Below the pieces are notes generated by a model. The model searched no databases, had not been told where the DNA came from, and worked only from the letters and a program-made list of their open reading frames with translations. Source: Picochlorum sp. SENEW3 (lineage: Eukaryota). Taken from it: a stretch of DNA of 64,000 nucleotides. A program made the translations under genes and the position numbers. The stretch is from contig CP120459.1 in the NCBI GenBank assembly GCA_034226945.1, positions 372,001 to 436,000 on the forward strand. Reading direction: 5' to 3'. Below are positions 1 to 30,020 of the stretch, piece by piece. How positions within the stretch are numbered: the stretch's first letter is position 1; each line of letters starts with the position of its first letter.

Positions 1-499
1 GAGGGCCAAGTATGAGAGGCACAGCCTTGTCCACCCCAATCACCCTCTGCCCTTTCTTCACCTTTTCCAACAAAGGACCCCAATTGGCGTTGGGCATCAT
101 GTCACCCTCGACATCAGGAGCAAGATGATGATAATTCGTATCGAAATACTTGCTCATGTCCAATGCTGGGCACTCTGGAGTACCTCGAGCACAAGCAAAG
201 TACTGTTCCAGACCTTGCAAGTGGCTGAATCTGTCAGGGACCAGACCAAGGTACGTCACCGCAAAATCCAACACGTGATCATACAATGTCCCATCAAGGG
301 CCACCAGATCCACTCCCATGTCCGCTTGTTCCTTCCAAGCGCGGGCGTCAACCTCCTCAGCCGCCAACAGCAAAGCCTCGCCACTCAGGCCACCACTCCA
401 GTAGGACTCGAGGGCTTTCTTCATTTCTCGCTTGGATCCAATCCTTGGAAACCCAATCGTCGAAGAACAGTAAAGATGTGATGATGCGATCTGAGACAT
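1..499 (-). CDS. METE: Cobalamin-independent methionine synthase, 5' part (runs off the window start)
   Basis: Manual minus-strand translation from ATG 499 gives MSQIASSHLYCSSTIGFPRIGSKREMKKALESYW...LYDHVLD...ALDMSKYFDTNYHHL, which carries the MetE N-terminal motifs GFPRIG and MxKxFDTNYH. Absent from the ORF track because there is no stop in the window. Confidence 0.93.
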   Translation of the reverse strand, partial: MSQIASSHLYCSSTIGFPRIGSKREMKKALESYWSGGLSGEALLLAAEEVDARAWKEQADMGVDLVALDGTLYDHVLDFAVTYLGLVPDRFSHLQGLEQYFACARGTPECPALDMSKYFDTNYHHLAPDVEGDMMPNANWGPLLEKVKKGQRVIGVDKAVPLILGP

Positions 500-1152
500 T
501 CTGTCGGTAGTAACGTGTTGTAGGTTTGTTTGATCAGATATCTTGTCTCCACAGAGGACTTGTGATCAATAGAGCAATGAAACGCAAATTTCACTTGAAG
601 AACACTTGCAGTTTGTATGCGGGTCGTAGAAATTCAGATATTGAATTATAATGTACGCATCGTGAGGCAGATTCAGCCATTATCATCGTGATCTGATCCA
701 GTTTGATGGCCTGCACATCGACCTCCCTGTAGTTTTATGTTTGATCGGACACCTTGCCATATCGTAGTTTGACACGTGTTCATCCCCTATCAAATGAAAT
801 CTTGACGGGGTGCCCCCGATGGAAAAAGACCAACTACCTCTTCTCCCATCAAGAGATGGTGTTGAAGGATCAACTACATCATTAATGATGACAGAGCAGT
901 ATTGTTCTGTTAAAGACATAGGAGCACCAAAATTGCCAATATACGGCTGATTCATTGGAATCTCAGAGGTTACTTTTAAACTATTGCTGTAAAAAGTGAT
1001 ATTTGGATTGGGTTTGAGTCATGAATCATGATAGATCGTACCGATCGCTGAGGTGGTTGTGAAGCACTGCGTCAGTGTCACTCGCCACCGGCACCAATGT
1101 CGGATGTGAGAGCCATCACGTAAATGAGGACTTTTACAATTATCAGGCGTGC

Positions 1153-4128
1153 ATGATGGCAACAGCGGACGGGGAGATGCAAGCTTACGTACAGGACACA
1201 AGTCCCAAGCTTGGCCTCTACAGAAAGCCTTCGGGGAAACAGACACAGTATGAGAATTTAGTGGTCAAAGTCATTAAACCTGGATCACTAGGTGGATACC
1301 AAAATCATAATCGGGAAACTAAGGGACAGTGGCGAGGAGTTGCACGGTCCCCGCGACTGAAAAATCTACTTTTTGACACAGCAACAATGCTTGGTCACAT
1401 CTCCTTTGAGGCCACCCAGGCTGCACATTACCATGTATATAGATGCTTAGAAAATGGTATCGATCTTGGACCGATGGATTTCAATGGCTTTTGGTATAAA
1501 ATATTTGATGCAATAAAAGACCTTAGGTATGGTGGGGGTCTAAGCCATATTGACACGCCCCTCTACGATTCACTCAGGGAGTATGAAGAGAACGCCCCAT
1601 TGAGAAGAGGTGATCACCATCTTGATGGCGATGAACCTTTTTTGGGGATGTGGGATTTACCAGGGCACATGTATTGGAGACATGCTTGCCTCAAAGCTGC
1701 TGCAAAAACAAAGGAACAGAATTTGGGCATTATTCTTCAAACAAATGCATATCATAATTTGGGAAAGGTGATCAAGGTGCGTATTGCTGAATACTTTGGG
1801 GATAAATATGCTGATAATTTTCGTTCGCTCGTATCAGCTATTGCCAAATGCATCTGGGACGCTCAGCCTTTGGAGAAGGTCAAAGAGGGGTACAAGCGGC
1901 TGAGTGATCTCACGCAAGAGGAGATTAGAGAGATCGCTTGTCATGTCATAGATCCTATTCGGGAGAAATTTCCAGATGAGACAGGTCGAAAGGATAATTC
2001 GAAAATGATACAATTTGTGTATTTTGTTATGGGTGAGGTGATTGAATACAATAGAGTACGATCTCGTCAGCGGGGAGCACAGGTTGTCAAATTTGTAAAT
2101 GTGTGTGTTGGTCAGCAGCTGGCAAACGACATCGAGAGAGAAATGGGAGATTTGAGCAAGAAAAAGTTTGTCTTGTTCATGAAACATGCATTGGACATAT
2201 TTCGGCAGTGCTCAGGTTCAGATACATCCAGTGTTTGCAGAGATATTGGCATCAGATGTTCTCGACATGTATCAATGAATGGAAAATATCGCAGTCACAT
2301 TCTGCGACGTTTATCAGAGAGGATTTTGTATCAGACGGAAAATTCAATGCTCAAGGATGAGCTTGTGCTAGACCAACATCAAACAATGTGGATTGAGAGG
2401 ACTGCTGCTCAGCTGCAAGCTTCCTTCCAGCTGTCTGAATTTGAATCAAAGAAAGATCTCTTCGTAAAATATCTTAGAGAGTACATTGTACCAAAACTTC
2501 GGGAGTCGAATCTATGTGTGGCACAGAGGGATCACCAAAATGGAAATAATAAGATCCCATGGGGCAGAAAGATTGTGGTGCCCTCAATTCTCCCCTTGGC
2601 CAAAAAAAGAGCGTGTCATGTGAGCATCCCTAATGATGCAATCACATCATTGGCAAAGTTCTTGGCAGAAGAGGATAAGGATATCGAACAGAAGATCACA
2701 CCCATGCAGATCATACTCTCTGAGGCAAAAGAGAGAAAGATGGCAATTGAGAAAGAGATTGATGAACGCATGTTGCAAGAACAAACCGATGAGGAATACG
2801 AAATGGTGTGTCAAATAGAGAGAAACAAGATTGCCAGCGAGAAACAATTCAGAGCCATTCCTACAGGAAAAATACACAAGTACAAGATGAGGCCTGAGGA
2901 GACTGCCTTCAGCATGGACAGAAAGAAGAGGAAAGAAGAGTATTTGTCGAGCAGTGAAGAATTCAAGCAAGCTGAAAAGGAATGGGAACGTGCCAAACTG
3001 CTATATCAAGAGTGTTGCTGGATGGCTCTGTTCAATTTTAAAGTGAAACGACGCCAAGATGCACACGAGTGGCTTTTTGGTGGCGAGTTATCAACAGATG
3101 GTGTGGACGTGTCGATGCAGTACTACAGAATCAAAACAGATGTAGAAGTTGAAGCAGATCAAAAAGAGAAGAAAGAAAGCGGAAAGAAAGCCTTGCAAAG
3201 AAAGACCAAGAGAACAGGCAAAAAGCCTGCAGGCTCGGGCAGTGCTCTGACGGGAGACAAATCGGATGATATCTCCAGTCGAGCAGATTGGCGTAGAGCA
3301 AAAGATGTTTTGGAAGATGACCTCAGTAATCTATGTGTTTTTGATCCAGGTCCATCAGGACATGTGGGCATCAGAATGGATAGATCAAAATTTGACACCC
3401 TGAAGGAGAACAGAAAGCATGGTGACTACGACCCTTTTGAGACAATACACCTGAGCAACCATGAGATGAGAGCTCGGTCAGGGAAATTAAAGAGGATGAA
3501 GCTGAACGCAATATGGTCGGAAAGTAAACCCAAAATTCGGGTATGGAATGCTACAGCACCGAGTCGAAAGGTAGCAACAACAGCAGAAATCTTGGACTTT
3601 TGCAGAAACACAAATAGCCAGTTGCACGATGTCTATGGTTTTTATTCTCAAAACTGTTTCCGGCGGCAAAGGTTTTCCGTATACTCCAGGACTCAGCACA
3701 TGTTGGACATGATGGTTGAAAAGATCTGTGGCACATCAGAGAGGAAAGTGCAGGAGAGGACTGTAGTCGTATTTGGAAATGCAGCAATAAATTCAGGAGA
3801 GTGTCGAACAGGACGAATATGCTTGGGAGAGCTCAAACGTCTACTTCGACAACGCTGTTGCTATATTGAAGTTGACGAATTCAGGAGCAGTCAATATTGC
3901 TGTGCGTGTCAAACAAAGCTGGAACCTCCCCCAAGAGTTGGACTACACAAGCGCTGGAAAGTACGCCGTTGTATGAACAATGAATGTGAGCGTGCTTTTT
4001 GGCAGAGGGATGTAAATGCAGCCATCAATCTCTCAAAGTTCTTCCTCTGGGAAGTTAATGGAGAAGACAAGGACAAAGTTTTCAGAAGGCCTTGCAGGCT
4101 TGACGAAGATGACGTGCCTGATGTGTGA
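1153..4128 (+). CDS. Fanzor1-type (TnpB-like) putative RNA-guided endonuclease, about 990 aa
   Basis: ORF 1075..4128, first ATG at 1153. Motifs: FGGELSTDGVDVS, RuvC-I LCVFDPG, VVVFGNA, RuvC-II VDEFRSSQYC, zinc finger CCAC...CMNNEC, RuvC-III WQRDVNAAINL. Start is uncertain. Confidence 0.88.
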   Translation: MMATADGEMQAYVQDTSPKLGLYRKPSGKQTQYENLVVKVIKPGSLGGYQNHNRETKGQWRGVARSPRLKNLLFDTATMLGHISFEATQAAHYHVYRCLENGIDLGPMDFNGFWYKIFDAIKDLRYGGGLSHIDTPLYDSLREYEENAPLRRGDHHLDGDEPFLGMWDLPGHMYWRHACLKAAAKTKEQNLGIILQTNAYHNLGKVIKVRIAEYFGDKYADNFRSLVSAIAKCIWDAQPLEKVKEGYKRLSDLTQEEIREIACHVIDPIREKFPDETGRKDNSKMIQFVYFVMGEVIEYNRVRSRQRGAQVVKFVNVCVGQQLANDIEREMGDLSKKKFVLFMKHALDIFRQCSGSDTSSVCRDIGIRCSRHVSMNGKYRSHILRRLSERILYQTENSMLKDELVLDQHQTMWIERTAAQLQASFQLSEFESKKDLFVKYLREYIVPKLRESNLCVAQRDHQNGNNKIPWGRKIVVPSILPLAKKRACHVSIPNDAITSLAKFLAEEDKDIEQKITPMQIILSEAKERKMAIEKEIDERMLQEQTDEEYEMVCQIERNKIASEKQFRAIPTGKIHKYKMRPEETAFSMDRKKRKEEYLSSSEEFKQAEKEWERAKLLYQECCWMALFNFKVKRRQDAHEWLFGGELSTDGVDVSMQYYRIKTDVEVEADQKEKKESGKKALQRKTKRTGKKPAGSGSALTGDKSDDISSRADWRRAKDVLEDDLSNLCVFDPGPSGHVGIRMDRSKFDTLKENRKHGDYDPFETIHLSNHEMRARSGKLKRMKLNAIWSESKPKIRVWNATAPSRKVATTAEILDFCRNTNSQLHDVYGFYSQNCFRRQRFSVYSRTQHMLDMMVEKICGTSERKVQERTVVVFGNAAINSGECRTGRICLGELKRLLRQRCCYIEVDEFRSSQYCCACQTKLEPPPRVGLHKRWKVRRCMNNECERAFWQRDVNAAINLSKFFLWEVNGEDKDKVFRRPCRLDEDDVPDV

Positions 4129-4157
4129 TACAACCAAAGTCACATTGCTACATGCAT

Positions 4158-4183
4158 ATATATACAGGGTATATATACAGGGT
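4158..4183. repeat. 13-bp tandem duplication (ATATATACAGGGT)x2
   Basis: Two exact adjacent copies starting 30 nt after the Fanzor stop codon. Confidence 0.9.
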
Positions 4184-4279
4184 ATGCGCGGAGTATATAG
4201 ATAGAGAGTAAATTTTTTTTGGGTCTATTACACCTAGTTATAATAATACAATATTTTCCGCCATCAACTCTCCTTCATT

Positions 4280-4620
4280 TTACTGACTGTTTGGTCCACG
4301 CTTCTTTCCGAAACCAGTGACAACATTCACAAAACGACGGTTGTACTTCATGCGCTTGCAAGCACGTCCAGTTGGCTTCTTGGCCTTCTCCTGTGGAGCC
4401 ACCTTTGGGGTCTGTCCACGCACTTTACCGGCACGGGCGAGAGATCCGTGTACCTTTCCTGCGCAATAATAACAAAAGAATTAAAATCAATACAAACTAG
4501 GAATCCGTGAATGCCCCTGTGAAACTGAACGAGCGCTGTCAAACGGCGGAGGCCGCCAACATGAGAGTTTCATTCGTTCCAGTCGGACGGCGTATCTGTA
4601 GTAATTAGATACGTACCCAT
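4280..4620 (-). CDS. RPS30: 40S ribosomal protein S30 (eS30); exons 4617-4620 and 4280-4458
   Basis: Splicing ATGG|GTACGT...GCAG|GAAAG gives [60 protein letters not shown]. Confidence 0.96.
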
Positions 4621-4831
4621 GGTATTATTTTATCTATCAAGTGTTGGATATAAATTAATGAGTTTTAGAAGATGAACGAGGGCTGTCATGGTCATAAAGC
4701 GGCCGAGGACCTGCTCCTGAATTCGCAGTACCACGGCGATGCCACAATCGCAGTACCACCAGGTAGGCTGAAGACTGGTTCTACACACCTGCACACGATT
4801 GAATGAATAATTGATAGTCTATTTCATCAAT

Positions 4832-5914
4832 ATGGCGATGATGATGCTTCGGAGGCGACTGCTAGCCGGTATGGGAGGAGAATGGAGGAGTGGTCTTGGC
4901 GTCGCATCGCGTGATTGGAGTTTTGGGAATGGTTTTATGACTCTGGGAGGGATCGAGAGAGATTTCACATGCTTATCATCATCTTCAGCTACTAGTGGAG
5001 GGCAGATGCGCCATAGCGAGGTTGGGGGCGTTACAAATAGAGTCACATCTTCTTCTTCTGCTTTGACAGCACAGAATCCCCTCGATATGATGATGATGAT
5101 GATGACGAGGGGAGAGCAGCGATTCATGTCTACAATGACTGATTTGAAAACTAGCAGCAGCAGTAGTATTGGTGCGGAGCAGCAGGCAGCCATGGTGAGC
5201 AGCATGATGGAGTCTGCAGCTGAGCACGCAAGTTCCCGTGTGCCAGTATACGATTTGAACAAACAGCCCGTGTCAGGAGCAGATGGAGCTCCTGCTCATA
5301 TAGAGCTACCCGATGACGTCTTTGCAGAACCCGTTCGAGTGGATATTTTGCATAGGGTTGTCCGCTGGCAGTTGGCAAAGCGTCAACAGGGGACGCATGT
5401 GACAAAGACACGGTCAGATGTTCGAGGTGGCGGTCGAAAACCATGGCAGCAGAAGGGTAGCGGGCGTGCTCGACAAGGTACCATTCGAGCTCCGCAGTGG
5501 CGGGGCGGAGGTGTGGTGCATGGACCTGTGTTGAGGTCTCATGCACACAGTCTTCAAAAGAGAGTACGCCGACTGGGATTGAAATGTGCCGTGTCAGCCA
5601 AGATTGCCGAGGGTCGATTCCTTGTTGTTGATGCATTGCAGCCAGAGGATGCGAAGACGGCAACCATGAAGGGACATGTGGGAAAATTGTTAGAAGGGGC
5701 GCCTCGCGAGTCTGTCCTGTTTGTGGATACCACTCCAGTAGATGAATTACAATTAGGAATACGCAACATTCCTTGGGTTGATGTATTACCAGTAGGCGGT
5801 ATGAATGTGTACTCTATTCTTCAGAGAGATTTTCTCATTCTAACCAAGGATGCCGTGGATGAATTTATCAACAGGATGAGGAGGCCCATCAGGCCATGTT
5901 CTAGAACACCATGA
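4832..5914 (+). CDS. Bacterial-type ribosomal protein uL4, probably mitochondrial
   Basis: RQGTHVTKTRSDVRGGGRKPWQQKGSGRARQGTIRAPQWRGGG motif, with a long N-terminal presequence. Confidence 0.92.
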   Translation: MAMMMLRRRLLAGMGGEWRSGLGVASRDWSFGNGFMTLGGIERDFTCLSSSSATSGGQMRHSEVGGVTNRVTSSSSALTAQNPLDMMMMMMTRGEQRFMSTMTDLKTSSSSSIGAEQQAAMVSSMMESAAEHASSRVPVYDLNKQPVSGADGAPAHIELPDDVFAEPVRVDILHRVVRWQLAKRQQGTHVTKTRSDVRGGGRKPWQQKGSGRARQGTIRAPQWRGGGVVHGPVLRSHAHSLQKRVRRLGLKCAVSAKIAEGRFLVVDALQPEDAKTATMKGHVGKLLEGAPRESVLFVDTTPVDELQLGIRNIPWVDVLPVGGMNVYSILQRDFLILTKDAVDEFINRMRRPIRPCSRTP

Positions 5915-5945
5915 GTATTATTATTATTATTATTCTACATGTTGG

Positions 5946-7460
5946 TTACACATGAAAATGTTTATCAAACAACTGTACAAATTGGAAATCCGCGTACAAT
6001 TTTCGTTGGTTGTACCATCTCCCATGCAGTGTCTTTTGGGCTGCCACAGCAGCTTGCACACTGTCAAACTTGATGTAGACACATCCTTTGCTGTCCTTGT
6101 CCAAATGCAAGAAAAGCACCCGTCCAAATTTAGAACATTCATCACGAATATCCGACTGAATATCTTCATCCCAGTATTGTTCAGTTTCCTGCGTAGGGTC
6201 AAAAGCATTTTTTAGCAAGAGACATGGCGTCGGAATCGGCGACGCTGGTCCTAAAACACCCTGCATCAACGCAGTCTCGTCCACCTCAGCAGGAGACGAC
6301 ACTTTCTTGGCAAAATCCGGCATTTTTGGTACCTCAATACCTGCATTTGCTGCTAATCTATTCATCAGATTCGCACGTGACTGCGCAGACAATTTCATAC
6401 CGCCTCCATCGTCAGCATCAACATCAATTCTCTCCTCCACCATTCCCTGCGCAACAGCATCAACACTTGAGGAATCCATTTCAAGTCGCATAAGCATGCC
6501 TTGAATATCTATTTTGCCTTCTAATTCAGCAACTGCTTGTTGAGCATCCTTTGAATTCACAAACTGCACAATAGCACTTCCCAACGACTCGCCAGACTCA
6601 TCACGATCCACATGCACACTAAACACAGGACCAAACGGCTCGAATATAGGTTTCAAAAACTCTTCCGACAACGATGGATGTACATTCGACAACTTGACCT
6701 TGCCTGCAGCACTACTCGTACCATTCCCTTCCAGAGCCTGCTTCTTTGCTGCCTGGGCAGTATGCCATGCCACATTCTTCTCAGCCTCACTTGGCTTGAC
6801 CATGACAGCCTGCCCCATCAAGTCCTGCCCCGACATACCCAACGCCACCGTCACACTCTCTCGTTTCTCAAACTCTACATACGCAAAACCCTTGGATCGC
6901 CCAGACATGCGATCCTTGATAATCTTAATGTCCACCAAGGGACCCGCTTGGACAAAGAATTGAAACAAATCACGCTCGGACGCTTTCAAATTCAAATTAT
7001 ACACTTGAACCGTACGCATCGTTCGATCCAACTGAGCAAGCTCGTCCTCCACAGAAATGTTTTTGATCCGATTCCTCTCCTCCCGGTGCCTCCTCTGATA
7101 CTGACGGTCACCCTCATCCTCATACCGGTATCGCTCCCTCCGGCGTGACCGTGATCCATAGTCATAGTCATAATCATCTCGGTGTCGATGACGCCGTCGT
7201 CGCCTATCCGGAGACTCGGAGTCGGAGCGTTGCCGTCTCCGATGATGACGGTCTCTCGACCCATCAGACCCACGGCTTCTGGACCTCCTCGAGGGAGACC
7301 GCCTGTCTCTTCTACTCGTATGCTTCACATGACGAGAAGGAGTATCATCATCATCTTTTTCTGGACTGTGATGGCGCCGAGACCCATTCACATCTCGAGA
7401 ACCATCCAAAGGCGAGGCTGACCGTGTCCGAACAACCTGTTCTGCCATAGTATCCGTCAT
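5946..7460 (-). CDS. RBM39: RBM39/CAPER-like splicing factor (RS region, two RRMs, UHM)
   Basis: RS-rich N-terminus, RNP1 SKGFAYVEF, and a C-terminal UHM (CLLLKNAFDP...LHGRWY). Confidence 0.88.
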   Translation of the reverse strand: MTDTMAEQVVRTRSASPLDGSRDVNGSRRHHSPEKDDDDTPSRHVKHTSRRDRRSPSRRSRSRGSDGSRDRHHRRRQRSDSESPDRRRRRHRHRDDYDYDYGSRSRRRERYRYEDEGDRQYQRRHREERNRIKNISVEDELAQLDRTMRTVQVYNLNLKASERDLFQFFVQAGPLVDIKIIKDRMSGRSKGFAYVEFEKRESVTVALGMSGQDLMGQAVMVKPSEAEKNVAWHTAQAAKKQALEGNGTSSAAGKVKLSNVHPSLSEEFLKPIFEPFGPVFSVHVDRDESGESLGSAIVQFVNSKDAQQAVAELEGKIDIQGMLMRLEMDSSSVDAVAQGMVEERIDVDADDGGGMKLSAQSRANLMNRLAANAGIEVPKMPDFAKKVSSPAEVDETALMQGVLGPASPIPTPCLLLKNAFDPTQETEQYWDEDIQSDIRDECSKFGRVLFLHLDKDSKGCVYIKFDSVQAAVAAQKTLHGRWYNQRKLYADFQFVQLFDKHFHV

Positions 7461-8144
7461 TGGAACACGAGGTTACTTTTTATTTGCCAAAACAGTTATA
7501 AATAGTCTTCTTACCCTTGATATTCCTGAACAATATTCCCTACAGTGGTCGCTCTTCGGATGACAGTGGTTGAAATACTCTCTTGAGGAAAGAATAACAC
7601 CGTCTATACGACTCTTTGTTTATATAGGGTAGAAATATATATGAATGTCTCCAAGGGGAGGCGCATGCATTCAATATCAAAGGTTTCCATGTATCTGATA
7701 TTGCCAAGATGGAACAATATCGGTCGAATGTATCATCTGACCGTACATGTCAAAACCAGGGCTAGGTACGTTGTTTGCCCAGACCTTTCGACTCGGTTTT
7801 GGCCAGAGGATATGGATGATGAACCATTCAATGGCTCACACAGACTCTGCATCATTATGAACAACCGTATGATGGGTATATGACTGGTATTCGAATGCAT
7901 GCACCCATGCAGTATCATGATTCACATGCATGCAAGCAGGTTGTTGTCCCTTTCAACGACACGTCGAGTGGGAGAATATACTCTGGTCAACGGTCTCTTT
8001 CAGAATGGCGACATGTATGTTCTTCTTGCCATGTCACCGCGCCCTTTTTCTATTCTTTATTACTATTTACACAGTATTGTTGGTGTAGTATACCAACCAG
8101 TTGTCCCCAATATAGTTGTAGTTGTTGTTGTTGTTCGGGATTCC

Positions 8145-9092
8145 ATGGAACCAACGTGGCAGAAGAAGAGAGCCGCATTGTCGTCCCAGTCGAGACGTCG
8201 TGATGAATTATTGGCAGGCTCTGATTCACACAACCAAGGAGGAGGAGGAGGAGGCCAAGGAGGAGGCGAGGTGCGTGCTTCAGCAGCAGGCATGGACCCC
8301 CAGATTGTTGCCCAGCGAAGGATGGTGCATAGAGGTCTCCAAGAGCATCGCCAGACGACAGAATCGGCAAAGCGGAGTCTCCAAGTTGCAGAATCATGCT
8401 TGGAGATATCTGGTGCCGTTCTGACCGAGGTGCAGCGGCAGGGCGAGTCGTTGGATACGACGGAAAAGCACATGGAGGAGATGGAAGAGGAAGTTGTCGA
8501 GGCAGAGAGTTTGATCAAATTCATGCAAAAATGTTGCCTGTTTCAAGTCTTCTGTTGCTGTTGTACTGACAAGGATGTGAAGCGTGATAAATCTCGCAAA
8601 GCAAGATTGAGACAGAGGCGGCAAGAGAATGAAAGGATGATCCAAGCATTGTCACGGGCAAGAGAGGACAGGCACAGAGATTTACACGAGTTGCTGCATG
8701 ATGAACAAGGACCTCCTATCGTGACCATGGATGGAGATACATCAGAGCAAAAAGATGCCCTTAAAGTAGCCGCAAAATACCATCACGGGACGTCAAGCAC
8801 CGCCACCATTCCCTTTTCAGGACAAGGACATGGCATGTCTCAGCGGTCCAATGCAGCTGTGCAGTCAGGGGCCATTACAGCAGAGGAAATTCAAGAGATT
8901 AGCGAGGAGAGTCTCCAGCAGGATAAATACCTTACACAGATTGACAAAACCATGGATAAGCTCAAGGCGATGGGATTGGAGCTGAGCAGAGAGCTCCATG
9001 AGCAAGACGAGCAGATTTCGAAAATTGATGAGAAAACGTACAATACTCGGATGACACTGACCAGCCTATCAAGGCAGGCTCGCAAGATTTAA
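8145..9092 (+). CDS. SNAP-25-like Qbc SNARE
   Basis: Two SNARE helices (ES..RSL...EVQRQGESL and QDKYL..I...L.ELHEQDEQI) around a Cys-rich linker. Likely ATG at 8145. Confidence 0.8.
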   Translation: MEPTWQKKRAALSSQSRRRDELLAGSDSHNQGGGGGGQGGGEVRASAAGMDPQIVAQRRMVHRGLQEHRQTTESAKRSLQVAESCLEISGAVLTEVQRQGESLDTTEKHMEEMEEEVVEAESLIKFMQKCCLFQVFCCCCTDKDVKRDKSRKARLRQRRQENERMIQALSRAREDRHRDLHELLHDEQGPPIVTMDGDTSEQKDALKVAAKYHHGTSSTATIPFSGQGHGMSQRSNAAVQSGAITAEEIQEISEESLQQDKYLTQIDKTMDKLKAMGLELSRELHEQDEQISKIDEKTYNTRMTLTSLSRQARKI

Positions 9093-9131
9093 TGGCATTG
9101 TAATTTTACTATATATAGCACTATCTGGAGT

Positions 9132-10773
9132 ATGTCCGGATTTCGACGTGTACAGAGTCATCATGAACTCAATGACCCCAATCATGTTCCGACAGTGGTA
9201 CGTGGCGACTATGGCCCTGAATGCTCTATATATGGTACTATGAATATTTTTACATGCAAATACAGGTTATAAAGGTCGGAACGTCGAGTTTAATCAGACC
9301 AGAGCAGAATTCTCTGAATTTATCGAGTCTCGCAGGTATCGTCGGCTTGGTCAGAGATTTGAGAAATGAAGGCTATAGAGTTGTTCTTGTTTCTAGTGGT
9401 GCTGTGGGGGTCGGTTGTCAGCGGCTGGAATTGGAAGTCCGGCCCCGGTTACTTGCGAAGAAGCAGGCTCTTGCTGCTGTTGGCCAGGTGCATTTGATGA
9501 GGTATTATGATGATCTGTTCAGTGCGTACAATATCACGTGTTCACAGGTTCTTCTGACGTTAGAGAATTTATCAAGTAGAACGACGTATTATAATGCGAT
9601 GAATACCTTCAATGAGTTGTTGAATTATGAAGTGATTCCCATTGTGAATGAGAATGATACAGTTGCTGTTGAACAGTTGAGGATTGGAGATAATGATACG
9701 CTGTCGGCGCAGGTTGCGACTCTTGTCCATGCGGATTGGTTATTTCTATTGACTGATGTGGATGCCTTGTATACGGCGAATCCAAACGTTGATCCGAGTG
9801 CTCGTCCAATCCACTTGGTTCCTGATTTGTGGGACCTGGAGGTGAATACAAGCACAGCTGGGACGCAGTGGGGGACAGGAGGTATGGCAACAAAGCTTAC
9901 AGCGGCTCGAATGGCGACAGCAGGGGGATGTAATGTAGCGATTTGCCATTTTGAGGATCCTGGTAATGTGCTGGATATTCTCAGGGGGAAGCAGGTTGGA
10001 ACTGTGTTCCGTGCATTGAATGCTCCTGTGCGGGGCCGCAAGAGATGGATTTTAAGCATGAAGTCTATCGGTGAATTATGGCTTGATGCGGGGGCTGTGC
10101 GAGCTGTCAAGGATCGACATTGTTCCCTCTTCTCAGCCGGTATTATTAAGGTTGTGGGCCACTTTTCTGATCAGGATGTGGTGGCAATTTGTGACGAGGA
10201 AGGAAGGGAATTTGCTCGCGGTCTTGTGAATTACAACCATGTACAAGTCGATGCGGTCAAGGTAGGATGCATTGTATTATTTTTGCATGTTGTATGAAGG
10301 AAGATGAAGGTATTAATACTCTTGTCATGCAGGGTGTTTCATCAAAGCAGCGCTTGAAAGAATTCGGGGACACATACGCAGAGGATGAAATCGTGCATCG
10401 ATCAACCATTTGTCTTTTAATGCCTCAGAAGAAAAAGGTGACAATCATCAACGATGCTGGCGAGGAGGAAGAAACCGAATGCGATGATGACGATGATGAA
10501 AGCATTGTAGACCCACTCGCAGATTCTCGCAGTACCACACCGGCCCTCCCACCAGCCATCCAATTTGTACCAGCATCTGCACTACAAGGACTCTCCGATA
10601 ACGCGACAGATGACGTGTCGAACAAGCTCAATGCGCTGAAATCAGACAAGAATGAGTCTGGAAAGGAATGGAAAAATGAATTGGTCAGCATCGTCGAAGA
10701 GGATTCAGACAAGACTGGTGATGCACTTGCAAAGAGTATTGAGAAGATCAATCTCGAAACGAACGACAAGTGA
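9132..10773 (+). CDS. proB: Glutamate 5-kinase with PUA domain; introns 9198-9265 and 10262-10332
   Basis: VIKVGTSSL, VSSGAV, NENDTV, GDNDTLSA and GTGGMATK motifs plus PUA domain. The GT-AG introns restore the frame. Confidence 0.93.
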
Positions 10774-27241: not shown

Positions 27242-27435
27242 CGCGAGTGCTTTCTGATCTTTCTTGTACTGGTGTGAACACTTGAATATCTATCTGTTCA
27301 GCAGTCAATATTTCAAATAAATTTGTATACTGTATTCGATTGGATGTATCAACGCCGTAGTACGCCAATGAGACTCGGAGCGTTTGAACGTTGGGATTTT
27401 CTAATTGCTAATTTGGGAATTTTTACATTTGACTA

Positions 27436-27459
27436 CCGTAAAAATTTTAAATTTCGTTT
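27436..27459 (+). repeat. Left terminal inverted repeat
   Basis: Pairs with 29978-30001 at 21/24 positions; preceded by TA. Confidence 0.85.
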
Positions 27460-29880: not shown

Positions 29881-30020
29881 ATTCGGCATGTAAGTCGGCT
29901 GCTTTTTGCAGACGCTATGCTTCAAGATACAGCAGAGAGAACGATGGAACTTCCAAGTTTGGAACATTCCGTCCGACAAACGAAATTAAAAAATTTTACT
30001 GTATCATGCTCCAAGCAGTG
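29880..30020 (+). ncRNA. Candidate Fanzor omegaRNA (scaffold up to the right TIR, guide from the flank)
   Basis: Nested pairings: GTCGG 29894-98/CCGAC 29973-77; CTGCT 29899-903/AGCAG 29931-35; hairpin GATGGAA-C-TTCCA-AGTT-TGGAA-CA-TTCCGTC 29943-73. The position matches known Fanzor/TnpB omegaRNAs. Boundaries are inferred. Confidence 0.6.
29978..30001 (-). repeat. Right terminal inverted repeat
   Basis: AAACGAAATTAAAAAATTTTACTG followed by TA. Confidence 0.85.

Follow-up and report, generated by a model that had tools for sequence, protein, structure and literature searches.

Near the left end of a 64-kb window of the Picochlorum sp. SENEW3 genome (64,000 nucleotides of contig CP120459.1, positions 372,001 to 436,000; coordinates below count from its first letter) lies a gene for a large protein of the Fanzor family. 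Fanzors correspond in eukaryotes to TnpB and Cas12 and serve as compact tools for genome editing, while their natural role for their carriers or hosts is unsettled. An original prediction, made from the letters of the sequence, had placed this gene between METE (divergent) and RPS30 (convergent, with a gap of 151 nt) and had described it as an uninterrupted open reading frame (ORF) of about 1,000 residues starting at 1075. Both neighbours and the gap, which runs from the Fanzor stop to the RPS30 stop, were borne out by the coordinates and by Pfam. The uninterrupted frame stood as well: it is a single ORF of 991 amino acids without intron (P0001; first ATG at 1153, stop codon 4126-4128). The proposed start did not stand, as 1075 lies in the same open frame but 5' of the first ATG; this frame is already open upstream of 1153, with the closing TGA near 1045. 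All the motifs that had been quoted, FDPG, VDEFRSS, a CxxC...CxxxxC zinc finger and QRDVNAAINL, are found in P0001 (Table 1).

We compared P0001 with known proteins. A plain sequence search of the PDB returned chance-level matches only, and Pfam PF07282 (Cas12f1-like TNB zinc finger) matched residues 901-960 with an E-value of 1.6e-5 and 25.4 bits, 0.9 bit under the gathering score of 26.3. An exhaustive HMMER search of 1.84 billion representatives yielded 384 relatives at E <= 0.001. Among the matches listed, four relatives are full-length (948-1003 aa; P0009-P0012), 29-35% identical to P0001, all of them metagenomic and unnamed, on contigs of 6-35 kb, and the deep relatives sit in small clusters of 1-5 members. 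In an alignment of 10 sequences (the query, two orthologues and seven relatives) D731, E909, D953, C916, C919, C940 and C945 are invariant, including in four lineages 29-35% identical to the query, and homology spans the whole length of the protein. A larger alignment of 105 rows consisted of the query, 99 of the best 150 of the 384 relatives, picked on the basis of length and E-value, most short fragments being dropped, and five added sequences (P0008, P0005, two cluster members and the smaller Fanzor of the window). Here the catalytic triad and the four cysteines are at least 90% conserved.

The profile built from these 105 sequences matched SpuFz1 (E 9.7e-67), GtFz1 (1.5e-53) and PpFz1 (4e-53), then the Fanzor2 protein L79 (1.3e-12) and TnpB (1.9e-4), and in the profile the motifs of P0001 align with those of SpuFz1 and GtFz1. 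An AlphaFold model from the same alignment (predicted local distance difference test, pLDDT, 76.7; predicted template modelling score, pTM, 0.75) was searched with Foldseek against 350,542 chains, and the top seven matches were all Fanzor1 (E 5e-12 to 2e-9). VIA-align gave Z-scores of 18.3 for PpFz1 (528 residues aligned), 16.8 for SpuFz1 (546 of 607) and 15.1 for GtFz1, the next unrelated row reaching 12.2; Fanzor2 (9b0l) and TnpB (8h1j) scored 9.1 and 9.8. Because profile and fold comparisons are both nearer to the solved Fanzor1 proteins than to Fanzor2 or TnpB, P0001 is, judged by its sequence and predicted model, a Fanzor1-type protein. The solved proteins, from Spizellomyces punctatus (SpuFz1), Parasitella parasitica (PpFz1) and Guillardia theta (GtFz1), have the same fold from residues 34-36 to 965-980, with the RuvC D/E/D residues and the zinc finger aligned with those of P0001, at an identity of just 14-17% in the structural alignment. 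The intact catalytic triad of the original prediction is thus supported by alignment, profile and predicted fold alike.

Compared with SpuFz1, which is some 400 residues shorter (546 of the 991 residues of P0001 align), the extra parts of P0001 are helical. The structure prediction, which had been proposed as a means of placing the insertions, assigns these roughly 400 residues to helical segments of the N-terminal lobe and to the helices at 494-626. The latter correspond to the long charged helical region noticed earlier, which is present as long helices in the predicted model and is shorter in the relatives P0010-P0012. Within the helical lobe the model has low-confidence stretches at residues 303-319, 350-406 and 448-471. 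The N-terminal beta strand would be WED-like by its position, the alignments of Fanzor1 chains beginning at residues 34-36, and the Lys/Arg-rich linker before the RuvC-like domain is a possible nuclear localisation signal. The extra length is common to a whole subfamily rather than peculiar to P0001, which belongs to an unusually long group (about 950-1000 aa) that otherwise comes, among the matches listed, from metagenomes only. Taken together, sequence and model suggest that P0001 is a complete Fanzor1-type nuclease, probably active, in which the REC-like and helical parts are enlarged. In the long subfamily, P0009, P0159, P0160 and P0161 are near-identical, yet carry three different C-terminal tails after a common '...EE(D/N)L(T/L)GG'; the tails may reflect distinct sequences flanking the boundary of an element, or simply the ends of contigs.

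Orthologues of P0001 form one 90%-identity cluster of seven proteins, 93-97% identical to it and from several Picochlorum sources: an intact ENA entry (P0008, 989 aa), two models of Picochlorum sp. BPE23 (P0002 and P0003, 759 and 740 aa), a P. renovo model (382 aa), the ORF of an MMETSP transcript (P0005) and P0006 with P0007, a split pair from a single JGI contig. No second 90% cluster of full-length proteins was found. The BPE23 models both end before the RuvC half, and we rejected them as evidence of breakage: because the tail of the 759-aa model resembles the translated 3' flank of the window gene (about 4157-4198), we treat them as uncertain annotation. The 759-aa model implies a predicted 'intron' that removes the nuclease domain, either an annotation artefact or a real lesion.

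At the nucleotide level, 20 public runs from nine studies contain at least part of the stretch. All of these are contigs, and the depths given below are therefore summed contig depths, not copy numbers or expression levels. Four runs were aligned over 200-4800 (X9, X11, X15 and X18); they were selected for containing the stretch and are uninformative on strains without it. X9, X11 and X15 cover 29-30 of the 30 bins of this region at about 1-3% nucleotide divergence. One X15 contig spans 3953-4800, from the 3' end of the Fanzor gene through RPS30 and beyond, other run contigs begin 285-385 nt upstream of the Fanzor ATG, and X11 and X15 have a 20-nt deletion at 881. Since contigs join the Fanzor to the same flanks, it occupies the same place in these organisms, and the METE-Fanzor-RPS30 arrangement is the same in the contigs of four runs differing by about 1-3%. 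As for expression, there is one assembled MMETSP transcript (P0005), from a frameshifted form of the gene, and the metatranscriptome contigs of X18 cover 23 of the 30 bins, with DNA carry-over possible. None of the outcomes that the original prediction had named as speaking against a domesticated gene (near-identical dispersed copies, empty sites, neutral evolution without expression) was found, the search for copies and empty sites being a weak one.

To assess selection we used a protein-level site test on the seven orthologue sequences. Stretches below 60% identity in a 15-residue window (frameshifted or mis-modelled tails) were masked, after which 986 of the 991 positions were covered and 74 varied among the seven sequences. 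A site was taken as conserved when the query residue occurs in at least three of the four deep lineages (P0009, P0010, P0011 and P0012; the near-duplicates P0159-P0161 were excluded). Only 2 of 198 conserved sites were variable, against 72 of 788 sites elsewhere (odds ratio 0.10, Fisher p 1.3e-5). Split by region, the effect persisted: 2/104 versus 62/619 in the N-terminal 726 residues (p 0.004) and 0/94 versus 10/169 in the RuvC part (p 0.016). As orthologue substitutions avoid family-conserved residues, the protein is, on this evidence, under purifying selection, a pattern not expected of a dead insertion. Furthermore, 3.8% of the residues vary in the RuvC half versus 9-12% elsewhere, and the RuvC part of X11 is less diverged (5/447 and 2/232) than its region 868-3461 (62/2594), to which the flanks are alike (12/441 and 12/540). 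COG6, a housekeeping gene of the window, is 99% identical to its JGI/MMETSP cluster representative, and for the Fanzor the identity to P0005 and P0007 is about 97%; the constraint on the Fanzor appears real yet looser than on a housekeeping gene.

The gene is not intact in all the lineages that carry it. X15 lacks 2 nt at about 1887 and has gained one nucleotide (+G) at 3518. All 27 gap letters of the X15 contig over 796-2582 are explained by the listed indels, and the 2-nt deletion is therefore uncompensated. A 2-nt shift also explains P0005, whose N-terminus is the +1 frame of the window, and P0006, whose tail is the +2 frame. The frameshift after residue 244 is hence common to three independent datasets (X15, P0005 and the split pair P0006/P0007), which implies that one lineage does without the full-length protein. 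The listed indels of X9 and X11 are in frame or compensated. The window copy itself has a +1/-1 indel pair, 14 nt apart at 2417-2431, by which it differs from all four runs and from all the orthologue proteins. There ASFQ replaces LPSS, with the loss of a proline at least 90% conserved in the family alignment; this could be a genuine compensated frameshift or else two errors of assembly.

The original prediction had found neither a pair of terminal inverted repeats (TIRs) nor a TGTAA after the stop, and both absences held. A repeat search detected no inverted or direct terminal repeat pair bracketing the ORF, the best local alignment of 480-1260 with the reverse complement of 4091-4300 scored at chance level (20; mean 19.2 and maximum 25 in 200 shuffles), and no TGTAA occurs in 4129-4282. 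Helitron-type termini were not recognised around the ORF, and neither a transposase nor a Rep/helicase was found in the 64-kb window. When the locus was compared with the whole window by blastn and tblastn, no other copy or remnant appeared besides a second Fanzor-like ORF of 783 aa. The proposal that the gene is immobilised therefore agrees, as far as it is testable, with what we see: no ends, no transposase in 64 kb and the same flanks in the contigs of four runs. The missing TIRs are not unusual, because published Fanzor loci also do without inverted repeats: in the accessible text of Saito et al. (PMC10432273) the GtFz1, NlovFz2 and MmeFz2 loci appear to have neither inverted repeats nor an associated transposase, that of GtFz1 being in this like the P0001 locus. 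SpuFz1, by contrast, occurs in multiple copies and has clear inverted repeats and 'ghost' loci, features that P0001 does not show.

The second Fanzor-like ORF is wedged tightly between ISWI and COG6 and, unlike P0001, is flanked by a 26-nt, 88% complementary TIR (27434-27459 and 29978-30003). It has in common with P0001 the C-terminal RuvC and zinc-finger module and the Pfam match, at 29% identity over the last 157 residues only and with nothing significant elsewhere. P0001 is 208 residues longer, close to the 200 or so predicted. From these comparisons the two Fanzor ORFs of the window are not recent duplicates. We also weighed, as a transposon remnant or guide target, a perfect 15-nt inverted match between 3876-3890 (the DEFRSS codons) and 4711-4725 (RPS30/MRPL4 intergenic), and rejected it. 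A mismatch at 4714 occurs in each of the four runs, and the surrounding sequence shows no protein similarity; the chance expectation for a 15-nt complementary pair in 4.4 kb is by our own estimate about 0.01, and the match is probably due to chance.

The 3' end of the gene is represented at other loci. Over the bin 3896-4049 the summed contig depth is 252 versus about 45 in X11 and 97 versus about 11 in X15, which amounts to 4-8 times the depth of the adjacent bins. In X11/X15, a contig belonging to another locus matches 4009-4031 and 4136-4159 and then continues into unlike sequence on both sides, producing a junction 4031>4136 and loose ends at 4009 and 4159. One X15 loose end encodes a zinc-finger variant found in the protein fragment P0027, which is part of a second lineage represented by fragments only, 55-79% identical (P0013, P0022, P0027 and P0042). 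Less similar is P0166, a related fragment from a P. oklahomense transcript, with 35% identity over the region aligned in a further alignment (A4), and P0037, the cluster representative of P0166, is 50% identical over residues 772-853. Diverged, fragmentary paralogues and an excess of 3' depth together imply that the family was once multi-copy and that the other copies decayed. With the common frameshift, these paralogues indicate that the Fanzor is neither indispensable nor always single-copy.

Homology with the other locus stops at 4159, and our best guess, offered as a lead only, is that this position is the old right end of the element. The 22-mer 4138-4159 is unique in the window, and neither it nor the family alignment gave a match in metagenome contigs. 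Directly at this boundary lie two perfect tandem copies of the 13-mer TATATATACAGGG, also present without gaps in an X11 contig over 3953-4184. Rfam gave no match on window 1-6000, and folding of the tail of the other Fanzor copy gave no signal.

We tentatively prefer to see in this gene a stranded, still functional Fanzor1, whose activity would most likely serve its own retention in a diploid, recombining alga. The insertion of a mobile element between METE and RPS30 would date from the ancestor of a group of closely related Picochlorum-like strains; this element would since have shed its recognisable ends and its transposase, or would have had none from the start. The gene would then have stayed at this locus, kept working by purifying selection and yet not indispensable, because one lineage carries a frameshift. 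By analogy with Fanzor1 complexes of solved structure, P0001 would bind an omegaRNA from its own 3' end and flank; this RNA would begin roughly 200 nt before the end of the ORF and reach about 4159, the guide following after that, and the complex would cut guide-matched DNA beside a short target motif through the RuvC site. Retention could be served by cutting followed by repair from the occupied homologue. Picochlorum is diploid, and two BPE23 alleles and allelic contig bubbles were seen. A host function seems less likely than the element's own retention; omegaRNA, cleavage and beneficiary are all inferred.

Several results weigh against this explanation. Retention by homing requires empty alleles and none was seen, in runs that had been chosen for containing the stretch. 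Folding of 3960-4200 was no better than that of shuffles (z -0.96, 36/200 as good) and gave no evidence of an omegaRNA, for which the stop of homology with another locus at 4159 is the sole hint. The 18 best-supported nucleotide differences listed in the ORF, besides which there are 182 others, comprise 13 nonsynonymous and 5 synonymous changes, a near-neutral ratio from a small and biased sample. Finally, purifying selection on a single fixed orthologous copy is classically taken to mark a domesticated gene and not a selfish element.

Domestication, which the original prediction had raised, is possible but on balance unlikely. Here the Fanzor would be a host-co-opted, single-locus and vertically inherited gene acting in genome defence, in repair or recombination, or in RNA-guided regulation. 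This would accommodate the same locus in all four runs aligned, the lack of transposon hallmarks, the substitutions that avoid conserved sites, as is not expected for a dead insertion, and the existence of a transcript. It would also fit the codon usage, which does not set the ORF apart from the host genes of the window (G+C content at third codon positions 0.44, inside the host-gene range of 0.425-0.512). Moreover, the architecture of 950-1000 aa is retained by all four deep lineages, which fall into small clusters; at a distance that leaves COG6 55-65% identical, their 29-35% identity would by a rough estimate suit a protein evolving at about three times the rate of COG6. Against a domesticated function stand the evolution of the Fanzor, about threefold faster than that of COG6 among JGI/MMETSP cluster members (about 97% versus 99% identity), and the 2-nt frameshift in three datasets, with the second X15 frameshift at 3518. 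Synteny is seen among close strains only, and no full-length orthologue of intermediate identity (60-90%) was found. TldR proteins have lost nuclease activity. P0001 retains its catalytic triad, whereas TldR, a published domestication from the TnpB family, is described in the accessible accounts as a set of transcription factors. What remains of the claim of domestication is thus the non-neutral substitution pattern and one transcript; the common frameshift, the short span (about 1-3% divergence) and the diverged paralogue fragments speak against it.

A recently stranded relic, that is, a dead transposon copy in early neutral decay whose ORF is open by chance in this strain, is improbable. The frameshifts of some lineages, the replacement of a nearly invariant proline by the +1/-1 pair of the window copy, the resemblance of X11 divergence over 868-3461 to that of the flanks and the 13 nonsynonymous to 5 synonymous differences would all be expected of it. 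Against it, each half of the protein has far fewer substitutions at conserved sites than elsewhere, and divergence in the RuvC half is only about 50% of that in the remainder. In addition, the 2.97-kb ORF is open in the window and in P0008, and the accountable parts of X9 and X11 have no frame-breaking indels.

Green algae offer precedents for Fanzors on other carriers. According to the accessible part of Bao and Jurka (2013; PMC3627910), Fanzor1 genes of Chlamydomonas are cargo of TIR-less Helitron2 elements, and copies of these elements are often 5'-truncated with over-represented 3' ends. The elements CRe-1/2/3 of Chlamydomonas reinhardtii resemble the P0001 locus, by description only, in their green algal host, in the lack of TIRs and in the over-represented 3' end; they differ in having five exons and many copies, whereas P0001 is one intron-less ORF around which no Helitron termini and no Rep/helicase were found. 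In the trebouxiophyte Auxenochlorella, as far as the accessible text of PMC12633428 goes, an uncharacterised Fanzor-bearing element is the most abundant repeat. That P0001 is still mobile on such a TIR-less carrier (Helitron2-like or another uncharacterised algal element), with ends invisible from a single copy, is nevertheless very improbable: these precedents, the homology that stops at 4159 and the four- to eightfold depth over the ORF end in two runs, itself compatible with a Helitron2-type carrier and not specific to one, are countered by the absence of a second copy, Rep/helicase or other transposase in the 64-kb window, by other loci that are diverged and fragmentary (55-79%, P0166 lower) with none near-identical, by the single 90% cluster of full-length proteins found and by the same flanks in all four runs.

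The gene can be regarded as an as yet unproven candidate for a Fanzor kept because of some function. A single end-less copy at a fixed locus, with selection on catalytic and structural residues, in a small, transformable, diploid alga would make a tractable case for asking whether selection can keep a Fanzor without transposition, and for whose benefit, by homing-type self-retention or by a host function. The long subfamily is a variant with large helical insertions, of possible interest to structural and engineering work. Should the gene merely be a slowly dying insertion, the finding would be an ordinary one. Fanzor loci without inverted repeats were already known; what is new is the unusually long member, and the selection signal on a fixed copy deserves most attention. 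In the accessible literature we found no account of this Picochlorum Fanzor gene, the supplementary tables of Saito et al. possibly listing Picochlorum loci, and no title naming a domesticated Fanzor, which is not proof that a host-retained Fanzor is unpublished. It is doubtful that P0001 and P0009-P0012 represent a vertically inherited, host-retained clade of catalytically active Fanzor1 in Picochlorum-like picoalgae, of which the METE-RPS30 gene would be one orthologue; if true, a eukaryote would have co-opted a Fanzor with its nuclease intact, in parallel to the way in which prokaryotes turned captured TnpB into Cas12.

Among viral proteins, the fold of P0001 is matched best by Fanzor1-like 'transposases' of giant viruses (in BFVD: Gaeavirus, 876 aa; Homavirus; Klosneuvirus, 799 aa; Tetraselmis virus 1; E 2.5e-17 to 1e-11), some of which are also long; P0001 instead lies among ordinary nuclear genes of an alga. 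Language-model look-alike clusters of P0001 are mostly from Nucleocytoviricota, a lead only. The only IMG/VR locus found (L001, from a giant-virus metagenome bin) matches just residues 894-986 of P0001 at 29% identity and was set aside as too distant to be an informative relative. It has a 664-aa Fanzor1-like ORF (8330-10324) about 1 kb from an oppositely oriented 339-aa ORF (region 6234-10324), which looks, from its sequence, like a putative DDE transposase. This layout resembles the Mariner-Fanzor1 arrangement in the accessible part of Bao and Jurka (PMC3627910).

Table 1. Features of the Fanzor locus and of the second Fanzor-like ORF (window coordinates)
Feature	Position	Strand	Basis or remark
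METE, 5' part (cobalamin-independent methionine synthase), divergent neighbour	2..499	-	Pfam Meth_synt_1, E 3.2e-45
METE/Fanzor intergenic stretch, presumed promoter	500..1152	.	no recognisable left end
Fanzor ORF (P0001)	1153..4128	+	991 aa
N-terminal beta strand, residues 36-45	1258..1287	+	model secondary structure
Helical lobe, REC-like, residues 67-480	1351..2592	+	model; larger than in solved Fanzor1
Long charged helical region, residues 494-626	2632..3030	+	model, confidence high in part
Lys/Arg-rich linker, about residues 688-703	3214..3261	+	disordered at 691-704 in model
RuvC-like nuclease domain with inserted zinc finger	3331..4056	+	conserved residues align to SpuFz1 motifs
FDPG, residues 730-733	D731 codon 3343-3345	+	
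VDEFRSS, residues 907-913	E909 codon 3877-3879	+	
Zinc finger, C916-x-x-C919, C940...C945	within 3898-3987	+	
QRDVNAAINL, residues 951-960	D953 codon 4009-4011	+	
First 31 nt after stop, candidate right boundary of old element	4129..4159	+	homology with other locus stops at 4159
Two tandem copies of the 13-mer	4157..4182	.	at the 4159 boundary
RPS30, convergent neighbour	4280..4620	-	stop 4280-4282, ATG 4618-4620; Pfam Ribosomal_S30, E 2.7e-30
RPS30 exon 2; intron; exon 1	4280-4458; ~4459-4616; 4617-4620	-	splice sites from sequence
Second Fanzor-like ORF, 783 aa	27529-29880		PF07282, E 4e-8

The remaining genes of the window are ordinary nuclear ones (MRPL4, an RBM39-like protein, ISWI, COG6, RabGAP, GOGAT, CCT and others). 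The sole intron of RPS30 interrupts codon 2 (ATG G / GTACGT ... CAG / GA) and is among the few introns visible in this compact stretch.

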